A DNA stretch of 64,000 nt from Candidatus Levyibacteriota bacterium (GTDB lineage: Bacteria > Patescibacteriota > Microgenomatia > Levybacterales > UBA12049), in contig DAIDHL010000004.1 of NCBI GenBank assembly GCA_027459745.1, forward strand, positions 79,240 to 143,239, read 5' to 3'. Positions 9,737 through 49,680 of the stretch are shown here, piece after piece. The notes beneath the pieces are model-generated. The model saw nothing but the letters and a program-made list of their open reading frames with translations, had not been told where the DNA came from and did no database searches. The position numbers and the translations under genes are program-made. Position 1 is the first letter of the stretch; each line of letters starts with the position of its first letter.

Positions 9737-11818
9737 TCATTGACATTCAAAGGTACATAATTGCAACCCACCCGCACCATGTGAACATTTACTTATAACC
9801 TTACATCCTGGTAAAGCCGTATTGGCCTGCTGTAATAAATCCGCAGGAATCTTCCATTCAAGCAAATAATTGCCGGTTTGTGAGATATCGGTCGAATAAG
9901 GTCCAAGCGCCGTGCCGTTGGATAATTGTGCTGTCAGCTGTAGCTGACCAAAGCTAAAGTCAAAAAAACTAGCCCCGCCTGTAGTATCGGTAACCCCGCT
10001 AAATTGTTGACCCCCAGAGCTTAAAGTTAAACTTACATTCGCAATTCCTTCATTGCCATCATAATAGCCGTTATTATTGTTATCAGTATACACAATAACC
10101 TTCATGGATAAATTGGCTGACGGTGTCGCTGAAAGACTAACCGTGCCGTCAGGACTTAAGGTAGGCGACGAGGTTATACCTTTGGCTGACAGAGGTTGAC
10201 TGCTGCAAGCTGGAGAGACCTCAGTCCTATTCAAACAAACTGCTCCTTGTTGGGTATTTACGGGTTGTTGATCCATTTCTGTAGCTTGTAATGCTTTCTC
10301 TACATTAATACAATTATCTGAATAGCCACCATATAAATCATTACACGCCAATAACATATCAATATACATATCCGAAAAATTCGCAGATGGAATTAGATAA
10401 TGTGTCAAAGCCCGATATTGAATCTGATAACTGGCACTACCAATACCATTAATCTGACAACCATTAAAACTACCACCCTGTGTCATTAAATAAAATGCTT
10501 TATTCATAATTCCTTCATTAGTATGAATACCGCCACTATCCTGACTATCACAAATGTATAGTGGTGAAAAAAGCTTATCCGGCTGTCCTGTTAAAGTCGG
10601 ATCATTTAAGTATCTAAAAGGAGTTTTTACACCAGTGAGATGTACATCTTCACCGATCGACCAGTTATGATCAAGACCCGTAGCAAAAATGTCTGAATTA
10701 CTTTCGTTTAAAGCTCCTGACTGATAACTATAGATTAAGCCTGCTGTATAATGTGTCACAGCATGAGTTAATTCATGTGCAACAATATCCAACACATCCA
10801 TGCCCGCACATAATTCAATCCCTCCATCGACATAAGCTGAATTAGGACAAGGAAACCCTGCAATATCTGCCCTATTAACATAACCAAACAATGTAGCGCC
10901 TTTATTATCGATACTGTCACGATTAAAATTATTGAAATAGAATTTATAAACTTTTCCGAAAATATCATAAAGTTTATTCACATCTAAATTTGCGGAAGAC
11001 GACTGACCTTCTGTACGACTCACCACACAATTATCTGAGCTATTACAATTACTAATATTGCGTGATAACAATGTTTCTACCTGATTTTCCTGATAAACAA
11101 TTTCCCCACTGACTAAATCCACAAAATAACGCTTTGCAAAACTTATGGGTTTGGTCTTTGAAGTAACCAATACAGCTAAAACATGGTAGGTTGTACCATC
11201 AGCGCTCAGTCCTAGAGCCTGTAGATTTAGTAAATATTCCTGCTCTTCATTCACGGTCAAACTCAAATTGGGATTCTCTTTTCGTGCCTGATTCAGAGCA
11301 ATTGTTTTTGCTTTTTGGTGATTAATTTGCGTGAATAACGTACTAGGCTGCTTTGTAACAACAACCCCTGCCGCAGCATATATCTCATCCGTGTGCTGAA
11401 TATGAATTGCAATAATACCGTCATAGACAGGAATATTATCGATAGTTTGTTGATAAAAATAATGCTCTGTTCCGGGCAGGTAATCAGTAGGATTTTGCTT
11501 GTCAATCATACTTCTTTGCAGTACTACATTGGAAAATGTATTCAAACCACTACCAAAAATTTTATTGGGATTTGCTCGAATAAAATCTAACGCAGCTGAT
11601 TGCCCTTGTTGATTTGATTTATATAAATAACCGCTTTGTGTATAAAGCGAAAAGGCATTGTCATTGCCATGGGTTACACTATATGAATCTTTTCCTAAAA
11701 TCTCGCTATTAATTGTAACTTGATTAAATACATAAGTTATTAACGAAACGATGGTTAATAGTATAAAAGCTGGAATAAACCAGTATTTTTTTAAATACTG
11801 TATTACTTTCTCTTTCAT
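9737..11818 (-). CDS. membrane-anchored extracytoplasmic thermolysin-family (M4) zinc metalloprotease
   Basis: N-terminal signal anchor; IVAHELTHAVTHYTAGLIYSYQSGALNESNSDIFA matches the thermolysin HEXXH...NExxSD active-site region; the C-terminal region is Cys-rich. Confidence 0.85.
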   Translation of the reverse strand: MKEKVIQYLKKYWFIPAFILLTIVSLITYVFNQVTINSEILGKDSYSVTHGNDNAFSLYTQSGYLYKSNQQGQSAALDFIRANPNKIFGSGLNTFSNVVLQRSMIDKQNPTDYLPGTEHYFYQQTIDNIPVYDGIIAIHIQHTDEIYAAAGVVVTKQPSTLFTQINHQKAKTIALNQARKENPNLSLTVNEEQEYLLNLQALGLSADGTTYHVLAVLVTSKTKPISFAKRYFVDLVSGEIVYQENQVETLLSRNISNCNSSDNCVVSRTEGQSSSANLDVNKLYDIFGKVYKFYFNNFNRDSIDNKGATLFGYVNRADIAGFPCPNSAYVDGGIELCAGMDVLDIVAHELTHAVTHYTAGLIYSYQSGALNESNSDIFATGLDHNWSIGEDVHLTGVKTPFRYLNDPTLTGQPDKLFSPLYICDSQDSGGIHTNEGIMNKAFYLMTQGGSFNGCQINGIGSASYQIQYRALTHYLIPSANFSDMYIDMLLACNDLYGGYSDNCINVEKALQATEMDQQPVNTQQGAVCLNRTEVSPACSSQPLSAKGITSSPTLSPDGTVSLSATPSANLSMKVIVYTDNNNNGYYDGNEGIANVSLTLSSGGQQFSGVTDTTGGASFFDFSFGQLQLTAQLSNGTALGPYSTDISQTGNYLLEWKIPADLLQQANTALPGCKVISKCSHGAGGLQLCTFECQ

Positions 11819-11890
11819 AGTATTATCATACAGGATTATTCAGTGGAGATAAAATAACTATCAAAGGCTGAGATTTAGCCTATTAAAAGC

Positions 11891-14800
11891 TTAAACTATA
11901 CCTGTTTGATCAGAATCACCATTGCTCATCAATGCAGCCGATGAAACTGCTGGTGGAGCGAATGTCATACCAGTAGCGCTGAGTGGCATAGATGTCGGAG
12001 TCATAGAAGAAGCTGATGGTATTTGATCTACTGTAGTAACTGACGGAACTGGGGTCAAACCTGCTACTGGATTTACTTGAGGTATGGAATTCACTCCACT
12101 ATCAAGCGTAGGAGCAGTGTTCGGGCCAACATTATTTATAGAATTTGTATAACTCTGTGCAATATCTCCAATAGTCTGCATTAACGGCTGGCTATCAGAA
12201 CTTGAAAGATCTGAGGGAGCTTGTTTAGATGTACTAACAGCTGGTGTTTCAGTTAAAGGTTGCTCAACTTGCGCTTGTATATTAGGAGTAGTATTGGGAT
12301 TTAATGAATTAACAACCTGATTCGATTGAGAAGTAGTATCGATAGTGGTGGCAGTAGTATTAGATACTGATGCAGTAGGACTATTTACTGTTTGTCCGAC
12401 AGCTTGAGGTTGCGGTTGTAATTTGGTAAAACTAAACTCCGATTTCTGTTGATCGTAATCAATTTTGATGATATCTCCAGCTACAAATGTTTTGTTAATA
12501 ATCATCATGGCAATTGGATTTTCAATAGCTGACTGGATCAAGCGACGTAATGGACGTGCTCCATATTGCGGATCATACCCTTCTTTAGCTAAGACCTCCA
12601 GTGCCCCATCCGTAATTTGCAAAGAGAAGCCCTGATCTTTAAGTAATTTATTAGTCTTTTCCACACCTAATTTAGCAATATATTTCATGTCTTGCTGTCT
12701 CAACGGTTGGAACATAATAATCTCATCAAAACGATTTAATAACTCAGGACGGAAAAATTTATGCAAATCGTCGGAAACTTTGGCCTGCATTTCTTTATAC
12801 ATTTTTTGATACTCTTCGGGTGTTTTGGTTGGTTTGGACAATTGATCCTGAATGTCCTGACTACCAATGTTGGAAGTAGCTATCACTATAGTATTTTTGA
12901 AAGAAATTGTATTACCTTTATTGTCTGTTAAACGTCCATCCTCCAATAGTTGTAACAAAATGTTAAATACATCAGGATGAGCTTTTTCAATTTCATCTAG
13001 TAAAACGATCGAATAAGGCTTTGCACGCACAGCTTCGGTCAATTGTCCTCCTTCTTCATAACCCACGTAACCTGGAGGTGCTCCTATTAATTTCGCAACC
13101 TCATGTTTTTCCATATATTCTGACATATCTAATCGCACCATGGCGTCATCTCGACCAAATAAAATTTCGGCTAATGTTTTGGCCAATTCGGTTTTTCCTG
13201 TACCAGTGGGCCCCAGAAAGATGAAAGAAGCAATCGGACGATTGGCTGCGGCCAGACCAATTCTTCCTCTTCTGACTGCTTCTGCAACTCCGTTGACTGC
13301 TGGTTCTTGATCAATCAATCGCATATGAATACGCTTTTCTAGCTCTAATAATTTTTGACTTTCATCTTCTGTTAATTTGGTAATAGGAATTCCTGTCCAA
13401 GCACTAACTACCTTTTCGATATCAGAGCGTTGGATGGTGTTATCTTGGCGTTTTCCAGCAGACATTTGCAACTTCACTTCCGCAGCTGCCTCGTCCAATA
13501 AATCTACTGCCTTGTCGGGCAAATAGCGTTCACCAATATATTTTTTAGATAATTTAACAGCCTGTTTTAAAGCATCATCTGGGATAGTAACATGATGATA
13601 ATTCTCATATTTGGTTTTTAATACTTGCAGCATTTTTACCGCAGTTTCCTCATCCGGTTCCTCCGCTATGATGGGCTGGAAACGGCGAGCAAAAGCTTTA
13701 TCTTTTTCAAAATACTTTCTGTATTCTGATGTTGTAGTGGTACCGATAATTTGTAATTGTCCACGAGCTAAATTCGGTTTAATGATATTAGAAGCATCCA
13801 AAGCACCCTCATTATCCCCCGTACCAATTAATGTGTGAATTTCATCAAAGAACAAGATCACTTGTCCTCCACTTGACATGGTGTCTTTCATTACACTGCG
13901 TAGTCTTTCTTCAAACTCCCCTCTATGACTAGCGCCTGCTACTAGTGATGAGACATCAATTTGAATAATCTTTTTGTTTTTCAACTCTTCAGGAACATTA
14001 CCTGACACAATCGCCTGAGCCAAACCCTCTACAATAGCCGTCTTACCCACACCAGCTTCACCAATAATAATTGGGTTATTTTTGGTCCTACGTAATAGAA
14101 TATGCACTAATCTATCAACTTCTTTTTCTCTACCTGCAACTGGATCTAATCCACCTTCTTTAGCTTTTTCTGTTAAATCTACACCAAATTTATCTAATAC
14201 TGACTTTCTTCCTTCAGTATAGGCGGATGATTTTTCCAACTTTGCCACAACTTCATCTTTTCTCACACCTTGGGCTTGCAATGTCGCACCACTAGAGGAG
14301 GGGAAAATTGCTAACAAAATGTCTTCCGGAGCGATAAACGAACTACTACGCTCCTTTGCAGACGTAAAAGCAGTTTCAAAGATTTGTTTAACTTGATCAC
14401 TCAAAGTTGGTTGGCCCGTAAAAGTACCTGGTGTTTCCTTGGTTTGTACTTCACGTGATAACTTAGCTACATCTACCTTAAATTGCTCCAATAGCTTATA
14501 GATCTCAGTATCGTATAGCAGACCAAATAGTAATTGTTCAGGCATGATAACTGCCTGCTGAACGCGCATTGCTTCTTGTTTGGCATGCATTAAGACCTGC
14601 ATAGAACGACTATCTAAATGAGAAAGCGCCGACAAATCTTCTCGACGTGAAGGATCCATTGCCGCACTATTGGCTGTAGCGGGAGCAGCGATGGGAATTG
14701 AGGGAGAAGTAGGAGCAGTTGTAGTTGTGGTGCTAGTCTGTTGGAAAGTCTGAGTAGGTAAAGCCATCGCAGCAACAGGAGCAACTACCACTGGCCCACT

Positions 14801-40114: not shown

Positions 40115-42001
40115 CTATTCCCAAAGTACAAAACGCTTGGTGATTTCCTCAACCTCTGCGTTGGTGCCAAAAAAACCTATAGCATAAAGTTCTATATCTT
40201 TTTCATTTTGTATACTTATCATTTTTTCAAGTTTATCATCGTTGGTCGTCTCAATCATTTCTCTATTAAAAGCCAAAAACTGCATATTCTTTTTTTTAAC
40301 TTCACATAGAACTTCATGTAATTCTTTTTCCACCCCCTCTAGAATAATAATAGCAAATTGAGAATTTCGAGGAAGCTCTTTACCATCTTTAGTAGTAAAA
40401 TATTCTCCAGTTCCAAACTTTCCATTCATTTTATGGCCTAAATAGGCTCCCACATGAGCGGAGGCATTCATGGCTTTCCATGAAGGTAAATCTTTGCGGA
40501 CTATAACTGCGGCTTTATGCGAAAAATCTTGCGGTGTTGTCTCCTTTTGTTCTGACTTTATTTTCTGAGCTTCATCTTGTTTCATCGTGGGGAAAAAGAC
40601 CATCTCTCTTACAGGTCTATCTACTAGCATACTAAACAATCTTTCTGAAATTCCAAATCCAGCAGCTGGTGGCATGCCATACTCCAGCGCTTCGACATAA
40701 TCTTCATCCATCATCTGAGCCTCTTCGTCTCCTTGTTCTCTTAGATTCATCTGCTCTTCAAATCTTTCTTTTTGGTCAATTGGATCATTTAATTCAGAAA
40801 AGCCTTTACCTAGTTCTGAGCCCATGGCTAGAATTTGTGTGCGTTCTACTAGGTGCTCACGACCAAGAATACGCTTGGCCAAAGGCTCTACTTCAACTGG
40901 ATGATTTAAAACAAACATCGGCTGTATCAACCCCGGTCTAATAGTTTTTTTATATAAATAATCCAGTAATCTACCTTTCCCCAAATTAGGTTCTACTTCT
41001 ACTTTTAACTGCTTGGCCAAAATATATAATTCTTCTACTGTCATTTTTTCCGTATCCACATTCCAATATTCGTTTAAAAGCTCTGTATATTCCTTACGTG
41101 GCCAATTACCAGACCAATCAATACTTTGATCATGCCAGGTAGTTTGTAAACTGCCGAAAGTTTTTTGAATTACGTTTTGGTACATATCCTGCAAGAAATC
41201 CATCAACTGATTATAATCCGCATAAGCCCAATAAAATTCTAGCTGAGTATAATCTTGTAAATGCTCATCGTCGATACCCTCATTGCGAAAAATTCTGCCA
41301 ATTTCAAATACTTTTTCAAATCCTCCCACTAATAACCTCTTTAATGGCAGCTCCAACGAAATCCGTAGATATAAATCCATATTTTGCGCATTATGGTGAG
41401 TAATAAATGGCCTTGCATCTGCACCACCCGGAATAGATTGTAATACTGGAGTTTCAACTTCCAAAAATCCCTTATCAATCATATATTGCCGCATACTTTG
41501 CCAAAAAATAGTTTTTTGTTTAAACAGTTCACGTAGTTCTGGATGCATTAACAAATCCAGATAACGCTTCCGCAATAAAACTTCTTTATTTTTTATATCA
41601 TAAAACTCACTAGGTAAAGGTAATAAGGCTTTAGTTAATAATATAAATCTATTAGGCGCGATTGATATCTCTCCAGCCATCGTCTTCACCACTCCACCCT
41701 CAACACCAATATAATCACCGATATCCAGTAGATTTAAATGTTTATATAAATCACCTAGTAATTTCTTCTGGAAAAAAAGTTGGATTTTGCCTGTTTCATC
41801 TTTTAAATCTGCAAAAGCAATATTTCCATGTGTACGAAAAGAGAATAATTTACCCGCTGTTTTAACGACCTTTCCTTCCATACCTAGGCATTGAGCAACT
41901 GTCTGCTGCTTATCATATTTATGGGCATAGGGGTCCCAACCAAGTGCTTTAATTTTGGCTAATTTATCGATCCTTGCTTGCTTAAAATTTACTTCATCCA
42001 T
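40115..42001 (-). CDS. lysS: class II lysyl-tRNA synthetase with a roughly 140-aa C-terminal DUF2000-like (PTH2-fold) extension
   Basis: OB anticodon-binding domain plus class II motifs 1-3. After the core ends (VFFPTMK) there is an additional domain beginning KAAVIVRKDLPSWKAMNASAHVGAYLG, resembling DUF2000. Confidence 0.9.
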   Translation of the reverse strand: MDEVNFKQARIDKLAKIKALGWDPYAHKYDKQQTVAQCLGMEGKVVKTAGKLFSFRTHGNIAFADLKDETGKIQLFFQKKLLGDLYKHLNLLDIGDYIGVEGGVVKTMAGEISIAPNRFILLTKALLPLPSEFYDIKNKEVLLRKRYLDLLMHPELRELFKQKTIFWQSMRQYMIDKGFLEVETPVLQSIPGGADARPFITHHNAQNMDLYLRISLELPLKRLLVGGFEKVFEIGRIFRNEGIDDEHLQDYTQLEFYWAYADYNQLMDFLQDMYQNVIQKTFGSLQTTWHDQSIDWSGNWPRKEYTELLNEYWNVDTEKMTVEELYILAKQLKVEVEPNLGKGRLLDYLYKKTIRPGLIQPMFVLNHPVEVEPLAKRILGREHLVERTQILAMGSELGKGFSELNDPIDQKERFEEQMNLREQGDEEAQMMDEDYVEALEYGMPPAAGFGISERLFSMLVDRPVREMVFFPTMKQDEAQKIKSEQKETTPQDFSHKAAVIVRKDLPSWKAMNASAHVGAYLGHKMNGKFGTGEYFTTKDGKELPRNSQFAIIILEGVEKELHEVLCEVKKKNMQFLAFNREMIETTNDDKLEKMISIQNEKDIELYAIGFFGTNAEVEEITKRFVLWE

Positions 42002-42039: not shown

Positions 42040-42666
42040 TTATTGAGGTAACACAATTTTCTCCGAGCATACTAATTCTATATCCAAATATGAATGATAA
42101 TATAACTGATAATAATCTGCAAAAGCACTAAACTCACATAGAGAATAAATCTTCTCTGCGTCGCTGATTCCTATATTCAATGCTACAATTTCTTTACTAT
42201 TGTTTGTTAATATTTTCTTTAAATTAGCTAGGGCTTTTACTGGAGGATTGTTTTTTAGCTCTTGCTTTAATAAATTCCATATTTTTTCTGATCCAATTCC
42301 TCCCTCTACCTTAGGCACAGACACACCACGTAAAAGTCCATTAAAAACAAATGCATATTTGCCATCTACATATGGTTGATTAAATTCAATATTATTTTTA
42401 TGTTTAGCAAACGACGCGCTACGGGCATGCGCTACCAATAATTTGCATTTAGGTACCTTTTCAAACATCTTCCTATCTTTCCATATCGGAGAGAGTGATT
42501 TAATAACGTTCCATTTATTATTCTCCCCAATCCATGCCACACCCCAACCATCCGCTTGTCTATCTCCATCCGGGGATCTGCTTTTTTCAGCTAAATCGGC
42601 AAATTTATTAATTACAATTGAAGAATCAATAAGATTATTAGATTTTAACAATAGGAATCTACACAT
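42040..42666 (-). CDS. class-II glutamine-amidotransferase-like Ntn hydrolase (EgtC/YafJ family)
   Basis: Begins MCRF, so the Cys is expected to be the N-terminal nucleophile after Met removal. The DGWGVAW, PIW, AHARSAS and FVFNG motifs parallel EgtC/YafJ. Confidence 0.6.
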   Translation of the reverse strand: MCRFLLLKSNNLIDSSIVINKFADLAEKSRSPDGDRQADGWGVAWIGENNKWNVIKSLSPIWKDRKMFEKVPKCKLLVAHARSASFAKHKNNIEFNQPYVDGKYAFVFNGLLRGVSVPKVEGGIGSEKIWNLLKQELKNNPPVKALANLKKILTNNSKEIVALNIGISDAEKIYSLCEFSAFADYYQLYYHSYLDIELVCSEKIVLPQ

Positions 42667-42671
42667 AAAAT

Positions 42672-43835
42672 TTAATCTATACCTTTTAATACTTTTATCA
42701 GCTTTTTAATAGCAAAATCAGAATCTTTTTTAGTTAAAATGTACGGCGGCAAAAATCTTATAACATTTTCTCCAGCCGGAATTACTAACACATTTTCTTC
42801 TTGGAGTTTTTTTAAGATTATATTTCTTTGATCTTTATTTACTACTAATCCAATCATTAGGCCCTTCCCTCTGACTTCTAAAACAACCTTGCTCTCAATC
42901 ATTCTTAGTTGTTGCAACATATATTTACTAATTGCACTTATATGAACTAGCCTTGCCTTATCCAATAGACGAAGAGTACTAATAATTCCCGCACATGCTA
43001 ATGGATTACCACCAAATGTAGAACTGTGAATATGTTTAGGAATTGCGGATGCAATTTCTTCAGAAATTATTGTTGCACCAACCGGTATTCCTCCTGCCAA
43101 ACCTTTACCCAAACATAAAATATCTCCTGCCACCCCTTCACTTGCCAAAAATTTACCTGTTCGACCCAATCCTGTCTGAATTTCATCAATAATTAAAAGT
43201 ATACCTTTAGTCTGGCATACTTCTTTAACTTTGTATAAATAATATTCATCTGGTACATATATTCCTCCTTCTCCCTGAATTGGCTCGACAATAAAAGCAG
43301 CTGTATCTTTATCAATTTCTCTTCGCAAAGCATCGATATTATTAAAAGGAATTGATACAAAATTCCACAATAGAGGCATAAAAGGCTGCTTATATTTCTC
43401 ACCGCTAGTGGCAGATAATGCACCCAATGTCTTACCGTGATATCCATTCTCACAAACAATAAACTTCTTCTTACCTGTCTTTAAAACGGCAAATTTTAAC
43501 GCCGTTTCTATTGCCTCTGCACCCGAATTACTCAAATAAACCTGCTCATACTTCTCACCACACCTTTTTATTAATTTTTCAACTGCCCGAGCTCTAGTAT
43601 CACTCGTAAAGCTCGCATGAAGTGTGCTTATCTTATGCAGTTGAGCAGTTAACGCTGAATTAATTTTCTGATTATTATAGCCGAATATGCTAACACCATA
43701 ATTCGACATTAAATCTAGATATTTTTTCCCATTATCATCATATAGATATACCCCCTTACCTTTAATCAAATTTAAATTACGATCTACATAGGTATTTACT
43801 GAATATTTTTGTTGTAAGTAATTAGCAATCTTCAT
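42672..43835 (-). CDS. argD: class-III PLP aminotransferase, acetylornithine / LysW-gamma-lysine aminotransferase (ArgD/LysJ)
   Basis: Full class-III aminotransferase length, a DEIQTGLGRTGK PLP-lysine region, and ArgD-like motifs. Confidence 0.85.
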   Translation of the reverse strand: MKIANYLQQKYSVNTYVDRNLNLIKGKGVYLYDDNGKKYLDLMSNYGVSIFGYNNQKINSALTAQLHKISTLHASFTSDTRARAVEKLIKRCGEKYEQVYLSNSGAEAIETALKFAVLKTGKKKFIVCENGYHGKTLGALSATSGEKYKQPFMPLLWNFVSIPFNNIDALRREIDKDTAAFIVEPIQGEGGIYVPDEYYLYKVKEVCQTKGILLIIDEIQTGLGRTGKFLASEGVAGDILCLGKGLAGGIPVGATIISEEIASAIPKHIHSSTFGGNPLACAGIISTLRLLDKARLVHISAISKYMLQQLRMIESKVVLEVRGKGLMIGLVVNKDQRNIILKKLQEENVLVIPAGENVIRFLPPYILTKKDSDFAIKKLIKVLKGID

Positions 43836-43837
43836 AG

Positions 43838-44641
43838 TTAAAAAATTATTGTTCCAGCACCACTTAAAGCTTTTCTCAGCGGGAAATCAACTCTCCCATC
43901 ACCCCAGTACATTATTTTTAAACCTGCAGTAAAAGCATTTTCTGCACCTAGTAATTTCTTTTTCATTCTTCCCTGCGCAAACTGTAAATAATTATGCAAC
44001 TCTTCTCTATTCATTTTCCTGATTAAACTTTTTGGATCATCGACGTCACGCAATAAACCTGGCGCTGCAAACAACGATATCATTTTTTTTATTTTTAAAT
44101 CTTCAACCATAACCGCCGTAGCAAAATCATTATCGGTATTCACAATTTGACTTTCTTCACTAATCGCCGGTGGACAAATAACCGGAGTATACTTATACCG
44201 CACCAATAAATTTATTAAATGTTTGTTTGTTTTTACGACTTTACCGGTCAGATTATCTGTTATTAATTTCGTCTTGCCTTCTTCCACTGAGTAAACTGCA
44301 TCTTTTCTTTTCGCCTCCCATAATCTGCCATCAATACCTGACAAGCCAATTGCATTGACTCCATATTTTTGCAAATTTGCAACAATCCTTTTATTAATCA
44401 ACCCTGCATATGCCATCAAAAAGATGTCTATTGCTTCCTGGTCAGTATATACACTACTTACACCGGATGGAGAGATTAGAACCCTTGTCGGTGACTTTAA
44501 ACTTCTAGCTATTTCGTCTCGAGTTTCGCTTGCTCCATGCACGATAATTACTTTTTCCTTTTTCTCCACCAGTTCAGCTATATCTTTGCAGACATTATCA
44601 ATATTAAGTTCTTTCCCACCGCCGATTTTAATAAGAATCAT
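43838..44641 (-). CDS. argB: amino-acid kinase family, acetylglutamate / LysW-aminoadipate kinase (ArgB/LysZ)
   Basis: Starts MILIKIGGG with an AAK-fold pattern; it lies between the aminotransferase and the HMGL-like gene. Confidence 0.8.
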   Translation of the reverse strand: MILIKIGGGKELNIDNVCKDIAELVEKKEKVIIVHGASETRDEIARSLKSPTRVLISPSGVSSVYTDQEAIDIFLMAYAGLINKRIVANLQKYGVNAIGLSGIDGRLWEAKRKDAVYSVEEGKTKLITDNLTGKVVKTNKHLINLLVRYKYTPVICPPAISEESQIVNTDNDFATAVMVEDLKIKKMISLFAAPGLLRDVDDPKSLIRKMNREELHNYLQFAQGRMKKKLLGAENAFTAGLKIMYWGDGRVDFPLRKALSGAGTIIF

Positions 44642-44644
44642 AAT

Positions 44645-45898
44645 TTAGGACACTTGACGCATCTTGTTGCTATTATATTCAGAGCCGACTAAAAACCTCG
44701 CTGCTACATCTTTTAATACTGATTCACATGAATTGTTTTTATTCATCCTGGGAGTCTCGTCTTTATATGCATTAGTAATCGCTTGTGCTAGATGATCACT
44801 TACAGAATACCCCCGTTGAGATAAATATTGCTGTATATGATGCCAGCCAACATAAGGGGTAAGAATAAATTGATTTTCTGGAACGCCGAATACCGAAAAA
44901 TCGATAGACCGATATGCATCGGGATTTTTTATAACTGCATCTGTATGTACTCCCGCAGCATGAGTGGTACTGTCCTCAGACACCAACTCAGACTCTGGGA
45001 TCGGAACACCTGCTATCTTACTCATTAGTTTATTTAGTTTATAAGTAAGGTTTAAATTAAAATCTTTTAGTAGTGCAGGATTTAGTTTATGAAGTCGAAC
45101 TAGCAAATTCCCAAATGATGTAATACCCGTTCTTTCTGCCCATCCCCAAATTGTTGTATCAATAAATGATATACCATACTTAGCCGATGTTATGGCATTA
45201 TGTAGTGTTTCGCCGCTGTCTGCATGAAAATGTCCTTCCAAATGTGTGTTTGGATATCGATCTCTCATTTCTTTGATAATTTGTCTTATAAAATCATCTG
45301 TCGCGACACCAACGGTGTCTGGTATACCAAAGGTTTGAACATATGGCTCAGCAGCATCGAAAGCGAGATTCCTATCATTAACCTCTGATCGAAAAGCATC
45401 TTCTGTACTGTAACGAATGTATAAATCAGGATGTGAGGCACGAACATCACCTAATATTCTACCTACTCTATCTGCAACTTCTAGCGGACTTTTCTGATGT
45501 CCGGCATGTTGAGCTACTCCCATGTAAACATGGACTCCATCTACTCCCCCATCAATAGCGGCATGAAAATCATCATAATGACAACGAACATGTGCATTCA
45601 AGCGTGGTCGATCTTTTTCAGGATAATTATTTGCGTGTTCACGTAGAGCTGCTAAACTTTCTTTTTCAAGAGCATTAACATTAGGTGAAAATACCTCAAA
45701 AGTTCGCACACCAACATCATACATAGCACTTACAAGACTAATTCGCTCGTCTATGGTGAGAGTAGGTTTACCAATAAGTGCATATCGTCGGCTTTGTAAA
45801 CCATCCCTTAGACTTGTATCAATATTTGTGATATATTCCCCCGGCTTTCTTCCAAACGTAGGAAAAGATTGCTGGGATTTTGATTCGATTCTACTCAT
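44645..45898 (-). CDS. HMGL-like family synthase (homocitrate synthase / 2-isopropylmalate synthase-like)
   Basis: DTSLRDGLQ (compare canonical DTTLRDGEQ) and GHFHADSG (HxH metal site) within a TIM-barrel DRE-TIM region. Confidence 0.7.
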   Translation of the reverse strand: MSRIESKSQQSFPTFGRKPGEYITNIDTSLRDGLQSRRYALIGKPTLTIDERISLVSAMYDVGVRTFEVFSPNVNALEKESLAALREHANNYPEKDRPRLNAHVRCHYDDFHAAIDGGVDGVHVYMGVAQHAGHQKSPLEVADRVGRILGDVRASHPDLYIRYSTEDAFRSEVNDRNLAFDAAEPYVQTFGIPDTVGVATDDFIRQIIKEMRDRYPNTHLEGHFHADSGETLHNAITSAKYGISFIDTTIWGWAERTGITSFGNLLVRLHKLNPALLKDFNLNLTYKLNKLMSKIAGVPIPESELVSEDSTTHAAGVHTDAVIKNPDAYRSIDFSVFGVPENQFILTPYVGWHHIQQYLSQRGYSVSDHLAQAITNAYKDETPRMNKNNSCESVLKDVAARFLVGSEYNSNKMRQVS

Positions 45899-45902
45899 AA
45901 TT

Positions 45903-46931
45903 TTAAATTGGGTGTAACCCGGTAAATGTTAAGCCCAATGCTTCTGGAATACCGAACATTATATTCATAGCCTGTACTGCTTGTCCTGCTGTTCCTTTGA
46001 CCAGGTTGTCTATTGCTCCAATAATTACTAACCTATTGGTATGTTGGTCTAATTCAAAACCAATGTCACAATAATTCGTTCCCTGTAAGATCTTTGGTTC
46101 CGGATAACGATACAATCCACTTTTCTCCTTTACAATGCGAATAAATGGCTCATTACCATACACATATCTGTAAGCATTCCAGATATCTTTTTCACTGACG
46201 TTTTTTTTAGGTTTCGCGTGAATTGTTACGAGTAATCCTCTTACCATGTCAATCGCTGTGGCTGAAATTCCCACCTTTAAACCAGATAACTCTTGTTCTA
46301 TTTCCGCAGTATGCCGATGTCCTGTAGGCATATAGGAACGAACCACTCCGGATCTTTCTGGGTGATGTGATGATAAAGATGCCCTCATTCCGGCTTGAGA
46401 ACTACTCATTTTTGCATCGATAATTACTTCATTCTCTATTAATTCATTTTTAACTAAGGGGTATAAAGAAAGAATTGAAACAGTTGCTTCACAACCTGCA
46501 CACGAAACATATTTGGCTTTTCTTATTTCTTCTCGATGAACTTCTGAAATACCATAGACAAAATCTGACAATAATTCAGGGTACGCATGTACTGTGTGAT
46601 ACCACCTAGTAAAGTTTACCTGATTATGTAGGCGAAAATCTGCACCCAAATCAATTATTTTACCAGCCAAATTTTTGAATCTGTTCATCAAACCCATCGA
46701 TACACCATTGGGTAGAGCAATAATTAAAACATCACATTTTCTTAATTGATCAAGAGAAATAAAACATATGTCAGTTGATTTTCGTAAGTTCGGATGCACC
46801 AAACTAACTGGCTGTCCCGCAAATTGACGAGATGTTACTTGATTAATATGGACTTTTGGGTGCTGAAGTAAAATACGCAAAAGTTCTCCTCCTGCATATC
46901 CAGATCCACCCACAATAGAAACCTTTATCAT
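45903..46931 (-). CDS. argC: N-acetyl-gamma-glutamyl-phosphate / LysW-aminoadipyl-phosphate reductase (ArgC/LysY)
   Basis: N-terminal Rossmann motif VSIVGGSGYAGGELLR and the semialdehyde dehydrogenase C-domain with a catalytic Cys region. Confidence 0.85.
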   Translation of the reverse strand: MIKVSIVGGSGYAGGELLRILLQHPKVHINQVTSRQFAGQPVSLVHPNLRKSTDICFISLDQLRKCDVLIIALPNGVSMGLMNRFKNLAGKIIDLGADFRLHNQVNFTRWYHTVHAYPELLSDFVYGISEVHREEIRKAKYVSCAGCEATVSILSLYPLVKNELIENEVIIDAKMSSSQAGMRASLSSHHPERSGVVRSYMPTGHRHTAEIEQELSGLKVGISATAIDMVRGLLVTIHAKPKKNVSEKDIWNAYRYVYGNEPFIRIVKEKSGLYRYPEPKILQGTNYCDIGFELDQHTNRLVIIGAIDNLVKGTAGQAVQAMNIMFGIPEALGLTFTGLHPI

Positions 46932-47776
46932 AATTTTTTATATACCTCCAAACAATAATCAATCACAGTTCCTGAAATATCTACTCCTGTTGGTTCTTCT
47001 GAGTTTTTAAATTCCATCGTATGATTAATTTCATTAACTGTATAGCCATCTGTAGTCTCAAAAATATCCATAGCTAATATTCCTCCTCCCACCGCTTCAG
47101 AAGCATTTTTAGCCAAAATTCGCAGTTGTGAATTTAATCGACAATTTGTTGCATTTCCGCCTCTGGCGGTATTAGTAATCCAGTGTTCTGACTTACGATA
47201 TATTGCACATATTGCTTGTCCATCGATGACAAACAATCGAATATCTCTCCCTGGTTTATCTATATATTGTTGAATATAAATTGGTTTTTGTTGAGGAGAA
47301 CCAAGTATATCTTTGTGTTCTATAATTGCTTCCAGACTATCGACATCATTAATCTTAGCTAACAATCGCCCCCACGAACCAAGAGTTGGTTTGATAATTA
47401 CTGGATAACCGCCTAATTGCTCACTGGCTTTTTTTGCTTCCTCCGTTGAAAATACTAAAGTAAAATTAGGTGTAGGAACGTTATTTTTTTGTAAAACTAA
47501 TGATGTTAAGAATTTATCCTCACAAATATTGGCTACTGTAGAAGGGTTTAAAACAGTAATACCTCGAGATTCCAAAAATTTAGTCGCGTAACTTCCCTTA
47601 ACGGTAGAAATACAACGTTCTAATGCCAGATCAAATTCAGGTTTATAACTTAAAGGGTTAAAATTAGCATCACGAACATCAACTAATTTAGTTTTTATAT
47701 TACGTCTAGTGGCTGCTTGCAAAAGTAGTTTTTCATCAGCACGAATAAGAGTATGTAAAATACCGAGAGTAAGCAT
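46928..47776 (-). CDS. lysX: ATP-grasp ligase of the RimK/LysX family (ligates the amino-acid substrate to LysW)
   Basis: ATP-grasp fold of LysX/RimK size (282 aa), immediately downstream of a LysW-like gene. Confidence 0.8.
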   Translation of the reverse strand: MLTLGILHTLIRADEKLLLQAATRRNIKTKLVDVRDANFNPLSYKPEFDLALERCISTVKGSYATKFLESRGITVLNPSTVANICEDKFLTSLVLQKNNVPTPNFTLVFSTEEAKKASEQLGGYPVIIKPTLGSWGRLLAKINDVDSLEAIIEHKDILGSPQQKPIYIQQYIDKPGRDIRLFVIDGQAICAIYRKSEHWITNTARGGNATNCRLNSQLRILAKNASEAVGGGILAMDIFETTDGYTVNEINHTMEFKNSEEPTGVDISGTVIDYCLEVYKKL

Positions 47777-47797
47777 ATACTTTAGCTGGGCGACGTC

Positions 47798-47980
47798 TTA
47801 CTCTCCCCAATCCTCCTCAACTTCAGGAGCCTCTTTTAAGACAGCTTTATTAGCAGTTAGGCTTTCTATCACCAAGCGTGAACGACAGTCGGTGCAAGAT
47901 ATAACTTCTGCTGGTTGTACTTCAGAAGATAATTTTGTGGTCGCATCACAAACTGGACAAACTGTAAGTATACTACTCAT
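47798..47980 (-). CDS. lysW: amino-group carrier protein LysW (zinc-ribbon protein ending in EDWGE)
   Basis: 60 aa with a CPVC...CTDC zinc ribbon, an acidic C-terminus and the terminal EEDWGE. Confidence 0.8.
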   Translation of the reverse strand: MSSILTVCPVCDATTKLSSEVQPAEVISCTDCRSRLVIESLTANKAVLKEAPEVEEDWGE

Positions 47981-48066
47981 AATATGTTTATTATATCTTT
48001 TATTAAATATTCGTCAATTTTTTCACAATCTTTGACATTTTATCAAAAAAATGTTACATTTGTAAC

Positions 48067-48726
48067 ATGATAACCACTACAGAAATAGTCAAAGAAATGA
48101 TTAAAAACTCACCTCTATTAGAAGATGGTTTAGCGAAAGGGATAATTAGTTATTCTGCTTTAGCAAGAGATATCAAACCTTCTTTGGAAAAAAAATTAAT
48201 GAAAAAAGTTACAAGAGGAGCTATTGTCATGGCCATCAAAAGATCTAGCCAAACTCTAAAACAAAATATAAATATTATTGAAAAAATTGTATCTCTAAGT
48301 AGTATCACAGTGAGATCTAATCTTACAGAATTAACCTATCATAATTCCGATACTATTGTTGAAAAGCATAAAAAACTTTTCATGCTATCTGAAAGGAAAA
48401 ATAATGCTTTATATACTCTATCTCAAGGAATAAGAGAGAGTATGATAGTTGTAGATTCTAATATGGAAAAAGATGTTGAATTAATATTAAGTGATGAAAA
48501 GCTAATAAAGAAAATCAAACATTTATCCTCTATTACTATATTACTTTCTAAGGACACTATTAATACACCAGGTGTCTATTATTCAATTCTTAAATTGTTC
48601 GCTTGGAGTCAAATTAGTGTTATTGACATGGTTTCAACTCTCACTGAATTAACAATTGTTTTAAACGATAATAATGTTGATAAAGCATTTTCAATACTTA
48701 AGAATTACAACATTCAAAAATCATGA
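48067..48726 (+). CDS. hypothetical protein, possibly ACT-domain-like
   Basis: 219 aa with a weak beta-alpha-beta ACT-like pattern; no firm family assignment. Confidence 0.35.
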   Translation: MITTTEIVKEMIKNSPLLEDGLAKGIISYSALARDIKPSLEKKLMKKVTRGAIVMAIKRSSQTLKQNINIIEKIVSLSSITVRSNLTELTYHNSDTIVEKHKKLFMLSERKNNALYTLSQGIRESMIVVDSNMEKDVELILSDEKLIKKIKHLSSITILLSKDTINTPGVYYSILKLFAWSQISVIDMVSTLTELTIVLNDNNVDKAFSILKNYNIQKS

Positions 48727-48729
48727 CTT

Positions 48730-49680
48730 CTAAATTAAGGGGTCTATAACAACATAATTATTTTCAGGATCAGAAAGTCCGTTTCTTTTTATCATAACAT
48801 TGCCCCAATTTATATCATAATGATGAAATGAAGACGACCAGTAACGGTTTTTAGTTGGATCAATAATTTTTTTAACTGATAAGGCTATTTCAGGTATACC
48901 GTCAAAAGCAAAGTCCCAAATCCCATCGATAATTTGATCATCCTTTCCCAATTCACCTTTTGCTTTCAATAAGTCATAATCATTAATTATTTGTGCAATT
49001 GTATATCCTTCTATATATTCTTGAATTAATATTTCGCTAGATCCCAAGTATACTTCTGGAACAGGAACCCCATTTTCCCCCAATTGTCGCAGTGCAATAT
49101 AATTACCCAAACCTGTTACTCCACTAAGATTCCATTCTTTACCCGTAGTATCATCTTCATAGAGTTTTCTACCTACAGACGCTTCCCATCTTTTTTGTGA
49201 AAATGGAAAAGCAAAATTAAAATATTTTATACAAAGATCTGAATATGTACCTTTTGCAGTTTTAGGCAATGAGCCAACAGCGCCATATGCCCCACCTCTA
49301 AAATCAGCAAAACTAATCTGTCCTGAACAAACATTGTTTAAGAATAGATCCAGGACTCTTCTTGCTTTTTCTAATTCAGTCAGATTTACAACCACTCTAT
49401 CCAATACTACTTTATAGCCTTCGTCTCTAGAAATATCCCGCACAGCGTAACCATGCTGTGTATTAGTTATCATGCAATCAAGATGGCCCTTGGAAGAATA
49501 CTTTATGTCTACAAACTCTGGTTTTCCTGAATACAATCTAGTAACATCAACTGGGTCAATTCTATCAATAGGAGTATCAGAAATAAAAGTATTGTATGGC
49601 CTTGCTAAAGAACTTCTACTATGAAATGTTCTTCTTGCATCAGCAAATTCTATTGGAATTCCTCTACGCTCTATTTTCAT
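48730..49680 (-). CDS. protein-kinase-like fold phosphotransferase (APH/choline-kinase-like)
   Basis: HHYDINWGNVMI resembles the HxDxxxxN catalytic loop, and ILIQEYIEG is hinge-like. Confidence 0.45.
   Translation of the reverse strand: MKIERRGIPIEFADARRTFHSRSSLARPYNTFISDTPIDRIDPVDVTRLYSGKPEFVDIKYSSKGHLDCMITNTQHGYAVRDISRDEGYKVVLDRVVVNLTELEKARRVLDLFLNNVCSGQISFADFRGGAYGAVGSLPKTAKGTYSDLCIKYFNFAFPFSQKRWEASVGRKLYEDDTTGKEWNLSGVTGLGNYIALRQLGENGVPVPEVYLGSSEILIQEYIEGYTIAQIINDYDLLKAKGELGKDDQIIDGIWDFAFDGIPEIALSVKKIIDPTKNRYWSSSFHHYDINWGNVMIKRNGLSDPENNYVVIDPLI

Follow-up and report, generated by a model that had tools for sequence, protein, structure and literature searches.

Sequence comparison and structure prediction make it probable that the Ntn hydrolase encoded at the end of a LysW operon, in the 64-kb stretch of DNA analysed here (the window), is both a [LysW]-gamma-lysine hydrolase and a LysW-Gln deamidase, acting as a non-orthologous replacement for LysK in a lysine-producing operon. 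In Thermus and archaea, the ATP-dependent LysX couples alpha-aminoadipate, through its alpha-amino group, to the C-terminal Glu of LysW at the gamma-carboxyl; LysZ then phosphorylates, LysY reduces and LysJ transaminates the LysW-bound substrate, yielding LysW-gamma-lysine. The novelty of the system described here is confined to the last step of the pathway, and we found no publication describing the replacement of LysK by an Ntn hydrolase. Judged from about 160 other loci, the swap seems to be common in nature, and the Ntn enzyme seems also to let the carrier protein end in Gln rather than Glu.

All seven genes from lysW to the Ntn gene were verified as ORFs on the minus strand, from position 47980 to 42040 of the window (Table 1), and follow each other with gaps of 21, -4, 4, 3, 2 and 5 nt. 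Together with the family matches, they bear out the gene run lysW-lysX-lysY-HMGL-like-lysZ-lysJ-Ntn proposed in the preliminary description. The grouping of the 60-aa protein with LysW also stands: besides its Zn-ribbon and EDWGE terminus, it passes the Pfam model Zn_ribbon_LysW (PF21344, 31.4 bits, cut-off 27), and its top NCBIfam matches are the LysW models NF041070 (52 bits) and TIGR01206 (35 bits), both under cut-off. The window LysX matches T. thermophilus LysX (3vpd) with E = 5e-79. Since TIGR01850 cannot tell LysY from ArgC, LysY is named from context. LysJ is named from family and context, with 328-335 bits against the equivalogs (cut-off 700), 375 against TIGR00707 (cut-off 410) and argD/LysJ as its best group. 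The homocitrate-synthase-like protein scores 182 bits with TIGR02146, well under the cut-off of 413. The system extends past the genes first noted and includes a divergent regulator gene and lysS, which is co-directional with the Ntn gene and lies 38 nt 3' of it, an arrangement also seen in the closest relative (L208). The operon as a whole is co-oriented with lysS. The window is bacterial, encoding IF-2, NusA, DnaK, MurB and GreA, and the nearest relatives of the cluster belong to Microgenomates-type Patescibacteria. A LysW cluster had at first seemed unexpected in a reduced genome. In fact, Microgenomates-type CPR commonly have such clusters, and so do several phyla with large genomes.

Table 1. 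Features of the LysW operon and its flanks (positions within the window).
Feature	Coordinates	Strand	Description
lysW	47798..47980	-	60 aa; Zn-ribbon CPVC...CTDC; acidic tail ending EDWGE; amino-group carrier protein
lysX	46928..47776	-	ATP-grasp ligase; TIGR02144 320.6 bits (cut-off 275.6)
lysY (argC-type)	45903..46931	-	LysW-aminoadipyl phosphate reductase; TIGR01850 385.5 bits (cut-off 233.6)
homocitrate-synthase-like gene	44645..45898	-	417 aa; HMGL-like + HCS_D2 (PF00682, PF22617)
lysZ	43838..44641	-	[LysW]-aminoadipate kinase; NF010659 302 bits (cut-off 223)
lysJ	42672..43835	-	class III [LysW]-aminoadipate semialdehyde aminotransferase; Aminotran_3 349 bits
Ntn (Cys2) hydrolase	42040..42666	-	208 aa; starts M-C-R; GATase_4 / EgtC-like fold
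lysS	40115..42001	-	class II LysRS + C-terminal DUF2000; NF001756 536 bits (cut-off 468); Pfam tRNA-synt_2 + DUF2000
A gene	48067..48726	+	219 aa; putative lysine-responsive regulator; divergent from lysW
palindrome TGTTACATTTGTAACA	48052..48067	.	TGTTA-N6-TAACA; putative operator abutting the A start codon
promoter-like site	47990..48017	-	TTGACG-16-TATAAT directly 5' of lysW

To follow the Ntn gene across genomes, we gathered 82 loci with the Ntn family as the sole search key. The gene lies within a LysW cluster in 69 of them, from at least six phyla: the CPR carriers are Roizman-, Gottesman-, Davies-, Shapiro-, Pace- and Dojkabacteria, and the others include Aminicenantes, Acidobacteriota, Ignavibacteriota and Fischerbacteria. 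Gene order takes three forms (W-X-Y-(H)-Z-J-N, W-(H)-X-Y-N-Z-J and Z-J-N-W-X-Y), and the median gap from lysJ to the Ntn gene is 4 nt (n = 50). In seven informative exceptions, mainly from Chloroflexota, the Ntn gene lies away from any LysW gene, and these loci have no common neighbours; thus the family occupies no conserved non-LysW context, a setting that the preliminary description had linked to an unrelated function. The LysW-free loci may stem from genomes whose pathway genes are dispersed, or the Ntn protein could have a second role.

The step that we propose for the Ntn hydrolase is that of LysK, an M20 metallopeptidase and ArgE homolog (Thermus thermophilus, PDB 5XOY) that cleaves the isopeptide bond between the C-terminal gamma-glutamyl group of LysW and the alpha-amine of lysine. 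However, the two proteins have no sequence similarity, and LysK is a di-metal peptidase unrelated in fold and mechanism to a metal-free, N-terminal-cysteine Ntn hydrolase. As first described, LysK is absent: no M20/ArgE/LysK-like ORF occurs across the 64-kb window, and neither lysK nor argE lies beside the cluster there or in the 82 related loci. An ArgE probe, validated on 7rsf and able to detect T. thermophilus LysK 5xoy, found no match at E <= 1 among 6,621 ORFs (82 loci, +/-10 kb, plus the window). Nor did an HMM made from bona fide M20s of LysW clusters find any in the 82 loci or the window, the scope of both searches; an unlinked LysK or ArgE could lie elsewhere in the genomes. A lone M20 neighbours an Ntn cluster, in L161; it is encoded on the opposite strand, and its identity of about 26% sets it apart as an outlier from the LysK-type set, whose members are 31-68% identical. 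In an independent sample, chosen solely by the LysW tail EEDWG[EQ]-stop, 13 loci carry the Ntn gene, 13 a LysK-type M20 and none both in the same operon. The two genes take the equivalent operon slot and substitute for each other in this sample.

Some LysW genes end in EDWGQ, and LysX cannot use a LysW ending in Gln. Such tails occur in 12 of the 59 Ntn-linked genes, scattered over lineages, and about 80% end in Glu. In the tail-chosen sample they are restricted to the Ntn type: Gln-ended LysW accompanies Ntn in 6 cases, 4 of them typed indirectly via the nearest LysX, and an M20 in none, and Glu-ended LysW accompanies Ntn in 15 and an M20 in 34 (Fisher p = 0.0019); with LysK, then, 0/34 LysW end in Gln. 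A Gln-ended LysW may be permitted in Ntn lineages because the Ntn hydrolase would deamidate it. Taken directly, this association speaks for no more than an action on the C-terminus of LysW, and the enzyme might serve maturation or proofreading alone (LysW-Gln deamidation, clearance of mis-loaded LysW) while an unlinked M20 enzyme of the ArgE/DapE/LysK-like kind releases the product. We consider this unlikely. It is true that some known organisms have an unlinked LysK, that our M20 search spanned the loci and the window, and that the M20-typed locus L136 (and, at first sight, L144) has a cluster with no adjacent hydrolase. Yet the Ntn gene is kept in-operon across phyla although most of the linked LysW proteins already end in Glu, and most carriers would then have no use for a dedicated deamidase. 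Moreover, it is with LysK-type M20s that Ntn exchanges exactly in operons (13 vs 13, overlap 0), and M20s are absent within +/-10 kb in the 82 loci, including those of roughly 1-Mb CPR genomes.

The predicted structure of the Ntn protein also points to a hydrolase. It matches GATase_4 at 32 bits (cut-off 23) and the EgtC model TIGR03442 at 45 bits (cut-off 218). The closest solved fold to its AF2 model (pLDDT 95) is EgtC (TM 0.79, Foldseek E = 2e-10), and hhalign aligns the family to EgtC with a probability of 93.5%. EgtC, the Ntn amidohydrolase of the ergothioneine pathway (PDB 4ZFJ/4ZFK/4ZFL), frees the amine of a gamma-glutamyl amide by hydrolysis. The Ntn family has invariant M-C-R (Cys2), DGWG, HARSA and FNG (N-G) motifs, and the N-terminal Cys nucleophile and the DGWG, RSA and NG motifs are common to both. 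However, identity is about 19%, egtB/D/E neighbours are absent at Ntn loci, and EgtC acts on a small molecule whose glutamyl alpha-amine is free rather than on the C-terminus of a protein. In fact, sequence and profile alignments place an invariant G-x-I-G-[AS] where EgtC and GlmS have the Asp that binds this free alpha-amine (the 'TVDS' segment of EgtC), and such a loss would fit a donor whose alpha-amine sits in a peptide bond. Stand-alone GATase_4 / YafJ-like proteins (PDB 3MDN, 1TE5) have the Pfam family, the fold and the single-domain build (~210-270 aa) in common with the Ntn protein, but they lack LysW linkage and show low similarity to the family profile (E = 6e-6). Pfam membership, the database name 'class II glutamine amidotransferase' and the fold that it shares with the GlmS and PurF glutaminase domains could suit a glutaminase of free glutamine, in which a class II amidotransferase domain would stand alone and feed glutamate or ammonia into the pathway, for instance as amino donor for LysJ or for an alpha-aminoadipate-forming aminotransferase; this is very improbable, as the nearest structure is a hydrolase and no true amidotransferase, the Asp gripping the alpha-amine of glutamine is missing, a partner synthase domain is absent, and both the exclusivity with LysK and the link to Gln-ended LysW would be left unexplained.

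To explain these results we propose that the 208-aa Ntn hydrolase, instead of the metallopeptidase LysK, would carry out the last step. Once Met1 is removed, the free N-terminal Cys2 would attack the gamma-glutamyl amide carbon; lysine would depart, leaving a LysW gamma-glutamyl thioester that water would resolve, regenerating LysW-Glu. Equivalent chemistry on a C-terminal Gln would free ammonia, and LysW-Gln would thereby be matured to ligation-competent LysW-Glu before loading. By analogy, this Gln-maturing and product-releasing logic would match that of Dop, which converts the C-terminal Gln of PupQ to Glu and also detaches Pup from target proteins; whether Pup ends in Q or E varies by species (PMC8599861). 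In each case a single enzyme would mature the carrier to its ligation-competent form and cut a gamma-glutamyl isopeptide, recycling the carrier. Dop differs, however, in its glutamine-synthetase-like fold and phosphate-based mechanism and is not homologous to the Ntn hydrolase, and the cargo of LysW is a biosynthetic intermediate, whereas Pup is a degradation tag for proteins. The replacement of LysK suggested at the outset thus draws support from linkage, M20 exclusivity, Gln tails and the EgtC fold, comparative evidence from which we infer the substrate and both activities.

Lysine and ornithine had both been considered as products, of which lysine, not ornithine, is very probably the one made. 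The window LysX carries the specificity motif F-I-T-NS, defined as the AAA-specific LysX type (PMC12998189), and the ArgX motif occurs in none of the Ntn-type LysX. About 19 loci have a LysRS gene 3' of the Ntn gene: the window, L047 and L060 have class II, and 16 have class I (15 with typed LysX). The LysX motif and the presence of LysRS genes of two unrelated classes at this position argue for lysine. Close homologs of the homocitrate-synthase-like protein (phmmer 259-296 bits) are encoded directly before homoaconitase L/S and Iso_dh genes in L016 (Pfam-confirmed), L028, L033, L040 and L048, so that relatives possess full AAA operons. Homoaconitase and homoisocitrate dehydrogenase are both absent from the 64-kb window, which counts against a lysine operon; LysW systems can be bifunctional (PMC12998189), and the clusters of L008 and L014 include PALP, SHMT-like and ThDP enzymes, suggesting different products in some lineages. 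There is nonetheless little chance that the Ntn protein releases ornithine/arginine or a non-proteinogenic amino acid here, against which stand the LysX motifs, a LysZ that passes the [LysW]-aminoadipate kinase equivalog, LysRS genes in the window and some 18 other loci, the homocitrate synthase gene in the operon and the complete AAA route of orthologous operons.

The divergent ACT-domain protein probably regulates the operon through a conserved palindrome. The A protein combines an N-terminal helical domain with a tandem aspartokinase-type ACT domain; the window protein has no Pfam match, and with its AF2 model (pLDDT 89) Foldseek retrieves regulatory subunits of aspartate kinase as the best matches. 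The gene at the equivalent position in an Aminicenantales locus encodes a protein of 45% identity, and the A family counts 160 homologs, some with ACT_7/ACT_9. The A gene is divergent from lysW in 34 loci, and a homolog faces an aspartate kinase gene in Mangrovimonas. The palindrome is single-copy in the window. Across 1.23 Mb it occurs 26 times, and 21 of these copies, one in each of 21 of the 34 A-lysW loci, sit at offsets of -1 to +4 relative to the A start; Mangrovimonas (L083) has it at the equivalent place. The predicted lysW promoter matches the consensus at 11/12 positions, the best in the region, and an alignment of the spacers of seven loci shows conservation of its -35 and -10 boxes.

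To our knowledge, LysK, an M20 metallopeptidase, has until now been treated as the universal last enzyme of the LysW route, the textbook case of carrier-protein-mediated amino acid biosynthesis. The pathway encoded in the window is this known LysW/amino-group carrier protein (AmCP) lysine route; what is new is the proposed last enzyme, a 208-aa Ntn hydrolase whose candidacy is well supported by comparative genomics.

The preliminary description had read a LysW cluster here, and all seven ORFs were indeed found on the minus strand, packed with successive intergenic gaps of 21, -4, 4, 3, 2 and 5 nt, their families matched in profile searches. LysW proteins are small Zn-ribbons (about 55 aa) that contain two CxxC pairs and have an acidic EDWGE tail whose C-terminal Glu is the attachment site. 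The 60-aa protein of the window has the ribbon (CPVC...CTDC), ends in ...EVEEDWGE and passes the Pfam Zn_ribbon_LysW threshold (31.4 bits, cut-off 27), and its identification as LysW is upheld. The NCBIfam LysW models are its best matches, yet because they score under their trusted cut-offs (NF041070, 52.3 vs 75; TIGR01206, 35.3 vs 53.2) the protein is, as far as profiles tell, a divergent family member. The lysX gene begins 21 nt downstream, a pairing seen in nearly all loci, and its product passes TIGR02144 (320.6 bits, cut-off 275.6). It is followed by a LysY/ArgC gene, identified by profile search, and LysZ passes the [LysW]-aminoadipate kinase model NF010659 (302 bits, cut-off 223). LysJ, at 335 bits to NF042418 and 328 to NF045491 (cut-off 700 each) and 375 to TIGR00707 (cut-off 410), is by its matches clearly a class III ArgD/LysJ-type aminotransferase. 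The homocitrate-synthase-like (HCS) protein combines HMGL-like and HCS_D2 domains and reaches 182 bits with TIGR02146, under the cut-off of 413. Chance ORFs or an assembly artefact are ruled out by the strong family matches, by synteny over 20 kb with the closest relative (GCA_027459725.1) and by an unremarkable GC content, with no anomaly within the 64-kb window. The remaining genes of the window are ordinary bacterial housekeeping genes, and no tRNA or Rfam match was found in its 64 kb.

Coordinates of the features discussed, in the window and in related loci (L numbers)
Feature	Locus	Position	Strand	Remarks
Cluster lysW to Ntn gene	window	47980..42040	-	
Ntn hydrolase gene	window	42666..42040	-	208 aa
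Class II LysRS fused to C-terminal DUF2000	window	40115-42001	-	DUF2000 at residues 495-627; 38 nt past Ntn gene, same strand
LysRS-DUF2000 counterpart	L208, closest relative	10663-12549		
LysRS-DUF2000 counterpart	L060	10737-12719		
Divergent regulator gene ("A")	window	48067-48726	+	219 aa; 45% identical in Aminicenantales; in 34 loci
Regulator + palindrome module	window	48052-48726	+	
Regulator + palindrome module	L083, Mangrovimonas	9983-10657		
316-aa ORF	window	48730-49680	-	between regulator gene and murB
Counterpart of 316-aa ORF	L208	2989-3942		317 aa; same position
lysY-lysZ interval	L008	3555-6303		PALP + SHMT-like enzymes in place of HCS
lysY-lysZ interval	L014	3830-8031		PALP + SHMT-like enzymes in place of HCS; also a ThDP enzyme

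What is the seventh protein? It starts Met-Cys-Arg, and its only passing match is GATase_4 (PF13230, 32 bits, cut-off 23). No similarity to Peptidase_M20 was found in it, which sets it apart from the LysK/ArgE family. An EgtC orthologue is ruled out as well: TIGR03442 matches weakly (45.3 bits against a cut-off of 218.65) and the gene is surrounded by genes of the LysW pathway instead of egtA-E. By sequence, then, the protein belongs to the GATase_4 Ntn superfamily and is neither LysK nor EgtC. Its AF2 model (pLDDT 95, pTM 0.91) retrieves three EgtC entries first from the PDB (TM 0.79, ~19% identity), followed by YafJ-like proteins and the glutaminase domains of GlmS and PurF, and hhalign links the family to EgtC with 93.5% probability. 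Class II Ntn enzymes are marked by a Cys after the initiator Met, an oxyanion N-G, an Arg for the glutamyl alpha-carboxylate and an alpha-beta-beta-alpha fold. Across 29 family sequences the invariant positions include M1-C2-R3, D39-G-W-G, H80-A-R-S-A (with R82), P98 and N109-G110, which make up the class II Ntn catalytic set; K90 and K128 are conserved basic positions. One difference falls in the substrate pocket. In GlmS, glutamine is held at its free alpha-amino group by a conserved Asp, Asp123. The segment carrying this Asp (TVDS in EgtC, ETDTE in GlmS) aligns in hhalign at or beside an invariant G122-x-I124-G125-[AS] of the Ntn family, where the profile alignment has no conserved acidic residue. 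At the level of the alignment the Asp is replaced by G-x-I-G-[A/S], and we read this segment as making room for a peptide-linked glutamyl donor. The family is large: one search retrieved 609 homologs, and another, started from a second subfamily, 3,030. Among the best 120 of those 3,030 matches there was no cultured, named host, all being MAGs or metagenomes, and there is no NCBIfam model specific to the family, which is currently labelled 'class II glutamine amidotransferase'.

The family is tied to LysW genes well beyond the window. One genome per species was scanned with the family alignment alone, giving 80 loci, to which two direct look-ups were added, and the window proteins were mapped onto all ORFs of these 82 loci. 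The Ntn gene (N) lies within a LysW cluster in 69 of them, in the orders W-X-Y-(HCS)-Z-J-N, W-(HCS)-X-Y-N-Z-J and Z-J-N-W-X-Y (letters as in lysW, lysX and so on), and the gap from lysJ to N has a median of 4 nt (n=50). Some carriers of Ntn-type clusters are complete genomes, for example OZ240210.1, OZ250169.1, OZ242023.1, OZ244895.1 and CAZRCW010000001.1 (928 kb). The loci carry labels of the CPR (Roizman-, Gottesman-, Davies-, Shapiro-, Pace- and Dojkabacteria, other Patescibacteria) and of Aminicenantes, Acidobacteriota/Marinacidobacterales, Ignavibacteriales/Melioribacteraceae, Fischerbacteria and others. Taxon labels of TPA MAGs often look unreliable: many loci among L003-L052 are labelled 'uncultured Gammaproteobacteria', yet they lie on contigs of sub-Mb genomes and have clusters nearly identical to those of Roizmanbacteria and Microgenomates. 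One locus (L004) carries the label Woesearchaeota. Could the gene belong to some other conserved context? Thirteen of the 82 loci lack cluster genes, and six of these end at a contig edge. The seven informative ones (L037, L041, L054, L056, L061, L065, L066; mostly Chloroflexota, one Peregrinibacteria) have unrelated neighbours, among them an ABC transporter with GNAT, a thiolase, a luciferase-like enzyme, ThrRS and MliC. With no recurrent neighbours there, a competing context is ruled out, and the proposed link to LysW survives the possibility that the family is universally found elsewhere. The genes outside clusters may reflect scattered pathway genes or a second function of the family.

Is a LysK hidden nearby? 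Our probe was an E. coli ArgE sequence, validated against the PDB, where it scored 891 bits to 7rsf and recovered 5xoy, the [LysW]-lysine hydrolase of T. thermophilus, at 2e-8. Window and 82 loci together have 6,621 ORFs, and none of these matched the probe at E <= 1. An HMM built from genuine LysW-linked M20 genes found nothing in the same set, and among 108 representative flanking ORFs scanned with Pfam no M20 recurred. A nearby LysK is thus ruled out, and the absence first noticed in the window extends to the 82 related loci. Because all these loci had been found through the Ntn gene, we drew an unbiased sample from metagenome contigs in which the LysW tail was the sole search key (EEDWG[E/Q] and then a TAA or TGA stop). 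LysW was confirmed in 75 of the 80 loci obtained. The Ntn gene was present in 13 loci and a LysK-type M20 in 13 (including L144), and 0 operons had both. In L161, the M20 beside the Ntn cluster lies on the opposite strand; its identity to the LysK-type set is ~26%, compared with 31-68% within that set. This complete separation argues that Ntn and LysK-type hydrolases substitute for each other, the Ntn type making up a large share of such clusters. Two LysW-LysX pairs stand in one cluster in L142, an M20-type metagenome locus (a-W-X-Y-Z-J-W-X-M20), which recalls the Sulfolobales, where the LysW and ArgW carriers are separate.

A property of the carrier points the same way. LysW ends in EDWGE in 47 of the 59 genes from the Ntn-ascertained sample and in EDWGQ in the other 12 (such as those of L003 and L033), the terminal Gln being a CAA or CAG codon right before the stop; these genes are scattered over CPR, Aminicenantes and W-X-Y-N lineages. 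LysX requires a gamma-carboxylate on the LysW terminus, and a terminal Gln must therefore be deamidated first. The LysW-tail sample holds six confirmed Gln-ended LysW, two of them (L093, L130) directly in Ntn clusters. The other four, on short contigs, were typed by their nearest LysX (68-91% identity), a procedure that in leave-one-out checks was right for 73/73 Ntn-type and 13/14 M20-type cases. In this unbiased sample all 6 Gln-ended LysW are of the Ntn type and 0 of the M20 type, against 15 and 34 for Glu-ended LysW (Fisher one-sided p = 0.0019). An Ntn enzyme that attacks the gamma-amide of the last LysW residue would lead one to expect such a restriction. Action on both LysW-Gln and LysW conjugates would mirror the double role of Dop, which deamidates PupQ and also strips Pup from its targets (PMC8599861).

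Which amino acid would be released? The preliminary description had left lysine and ornithine open. The LysX signature F-I-T-NS denotes aminoadipate (AAA), I-Y-V-GF ArgX and Y-I-T-NA a bifunctional enzyme (PMC12998189). Aligned to T. thermophilus LysX (3vpd/1uc8), the window protein has F-I-T-NS, as do 49 of 62 LysX proteins from Ntn-type clusters, the ArgX motif being found in 0 of 62. The commonest extra neighbour is a class I LysRS, directly past the Ntn gene in 16 loci; in the window, L047 and L060 a class II LysRS takes this place. For the window, the LysX motif and the LysRS rule out an ornithine or arginine product, and lysine is retained. The operon of L016 holds the whole aminoadipate route (HCS, large and small homoaconitase subunits and Iso_dh by Pfam), and five further CPR loci match these genes in ORF sizes and homology. 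The HCS-like gene of the window closely resembles the HCS genes in these operons, and its close homologs are directly followed by the aconitase subunits and Iso_dh in L016, L028, L033, L040 and L048. For homoaconitase, homoisocitrate dehydrogenase and LysK, the preliminary description had had the whole genome in mind; our search covered the 64-kb window, where none was found. HCS likewise stands without the first two in L025, L029, L030, L042, L069 and L208. Many CPR clusters are entirely without HCS, and 28 LysX-typed Ntn-type clusters without it keep an AAA-specific LysX. Two CPR clusters, L008 and L014, fill the lysY-lysZ interval with other enzymes and keep the Ntn gene, L008 also having a class I LysRS; in Microgenomates, these clusters may serve the carrier-bound synthesis of another amino acid, one that is non-proteinogenic.

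To explain these results we propose that the Ntn protein hydrolyses the LysW-bound product, LysK's step, which we hold to be quite probable on the comparative evidence. That it would also deamidate LysW-Gln is a proposal to which we give about even chances. Equally balanced, in our judgement, is the combined picture of a second widespread class of carrier-release enzyme, in which a bifunctional Ntn protein would be both [LysW]-gamma-lysine hydrolase and LysW-Gln deamidase, and LysW-Gln an encoded pro-carrier. We envision that Ntn deamidation would activate this pro-carrier before LysX can use it, so that a Dop/Pup-like logic would operate within primary amino acid biosynthesis. If so, the bifunctional enzyme would serve ~40-50% of environmental LysW clusters with an EEDWG tail and be used by thousands of bacteria (CPR, Acidobacteriota, Aminicenantes, Ignavibacteriota, Calditrichota). 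Gln-ended LysW would imply a carrier activation step previously unreported for amino-group carrier proteins, parallel to Pup/Dop, and a family known only by its amidotransferase label would gain a function. In the open-access literature we found no paper tying LysW/AmCP to Ntn, class II amidotransferase or YafJ enzymes. The genome paper of Caldithrix abyssi describes a LysWXZYJ+Hcs locus without LysK and raises the possibility of non-orthologous displacement in lysine biosynthesis (PMC5317091). If the Ntn protein does the last step, many genomes scored as incomplete for the lysine pathway, that of C. abyssi for example, would be complete, and auxotrophy predictions would therefore change for CPR and other uncultured lineages.

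Finally, the operon may have its own regulator. In many phyla, lysW operons have next to them a divergently oriented module made up of the A gene and a palindrome. In the 86-bp spacer between A and lysW, conserved across phyla, TTGAC boxes stand back to back, lysW has a TATAAT upstream, and a TGTTA-N6-TAACA palindrome abuts the A start codon. The palindrome occurs once in the window, and 21 of its 26 occurrences in 1.23 Mb abut the start of A. The modelled A protein has a helical N-domain and a tandem ACT module of the aspartokinase type, and in structure it is matched best by regulatory subunits of aspartate kinase. In Mangrovimonas aestuarii, a cultured flavobacterium, the palindrome precedes an A homolog facing aspartate kinase. 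In our reading, A is probably a transcription factor that responds to lysine, so far undescribed and common to both lysine pathways. Beyond A, on the minus strand, is an ORF with no Pfam match, whose place next to the regulator gene is kept in the closest relative.
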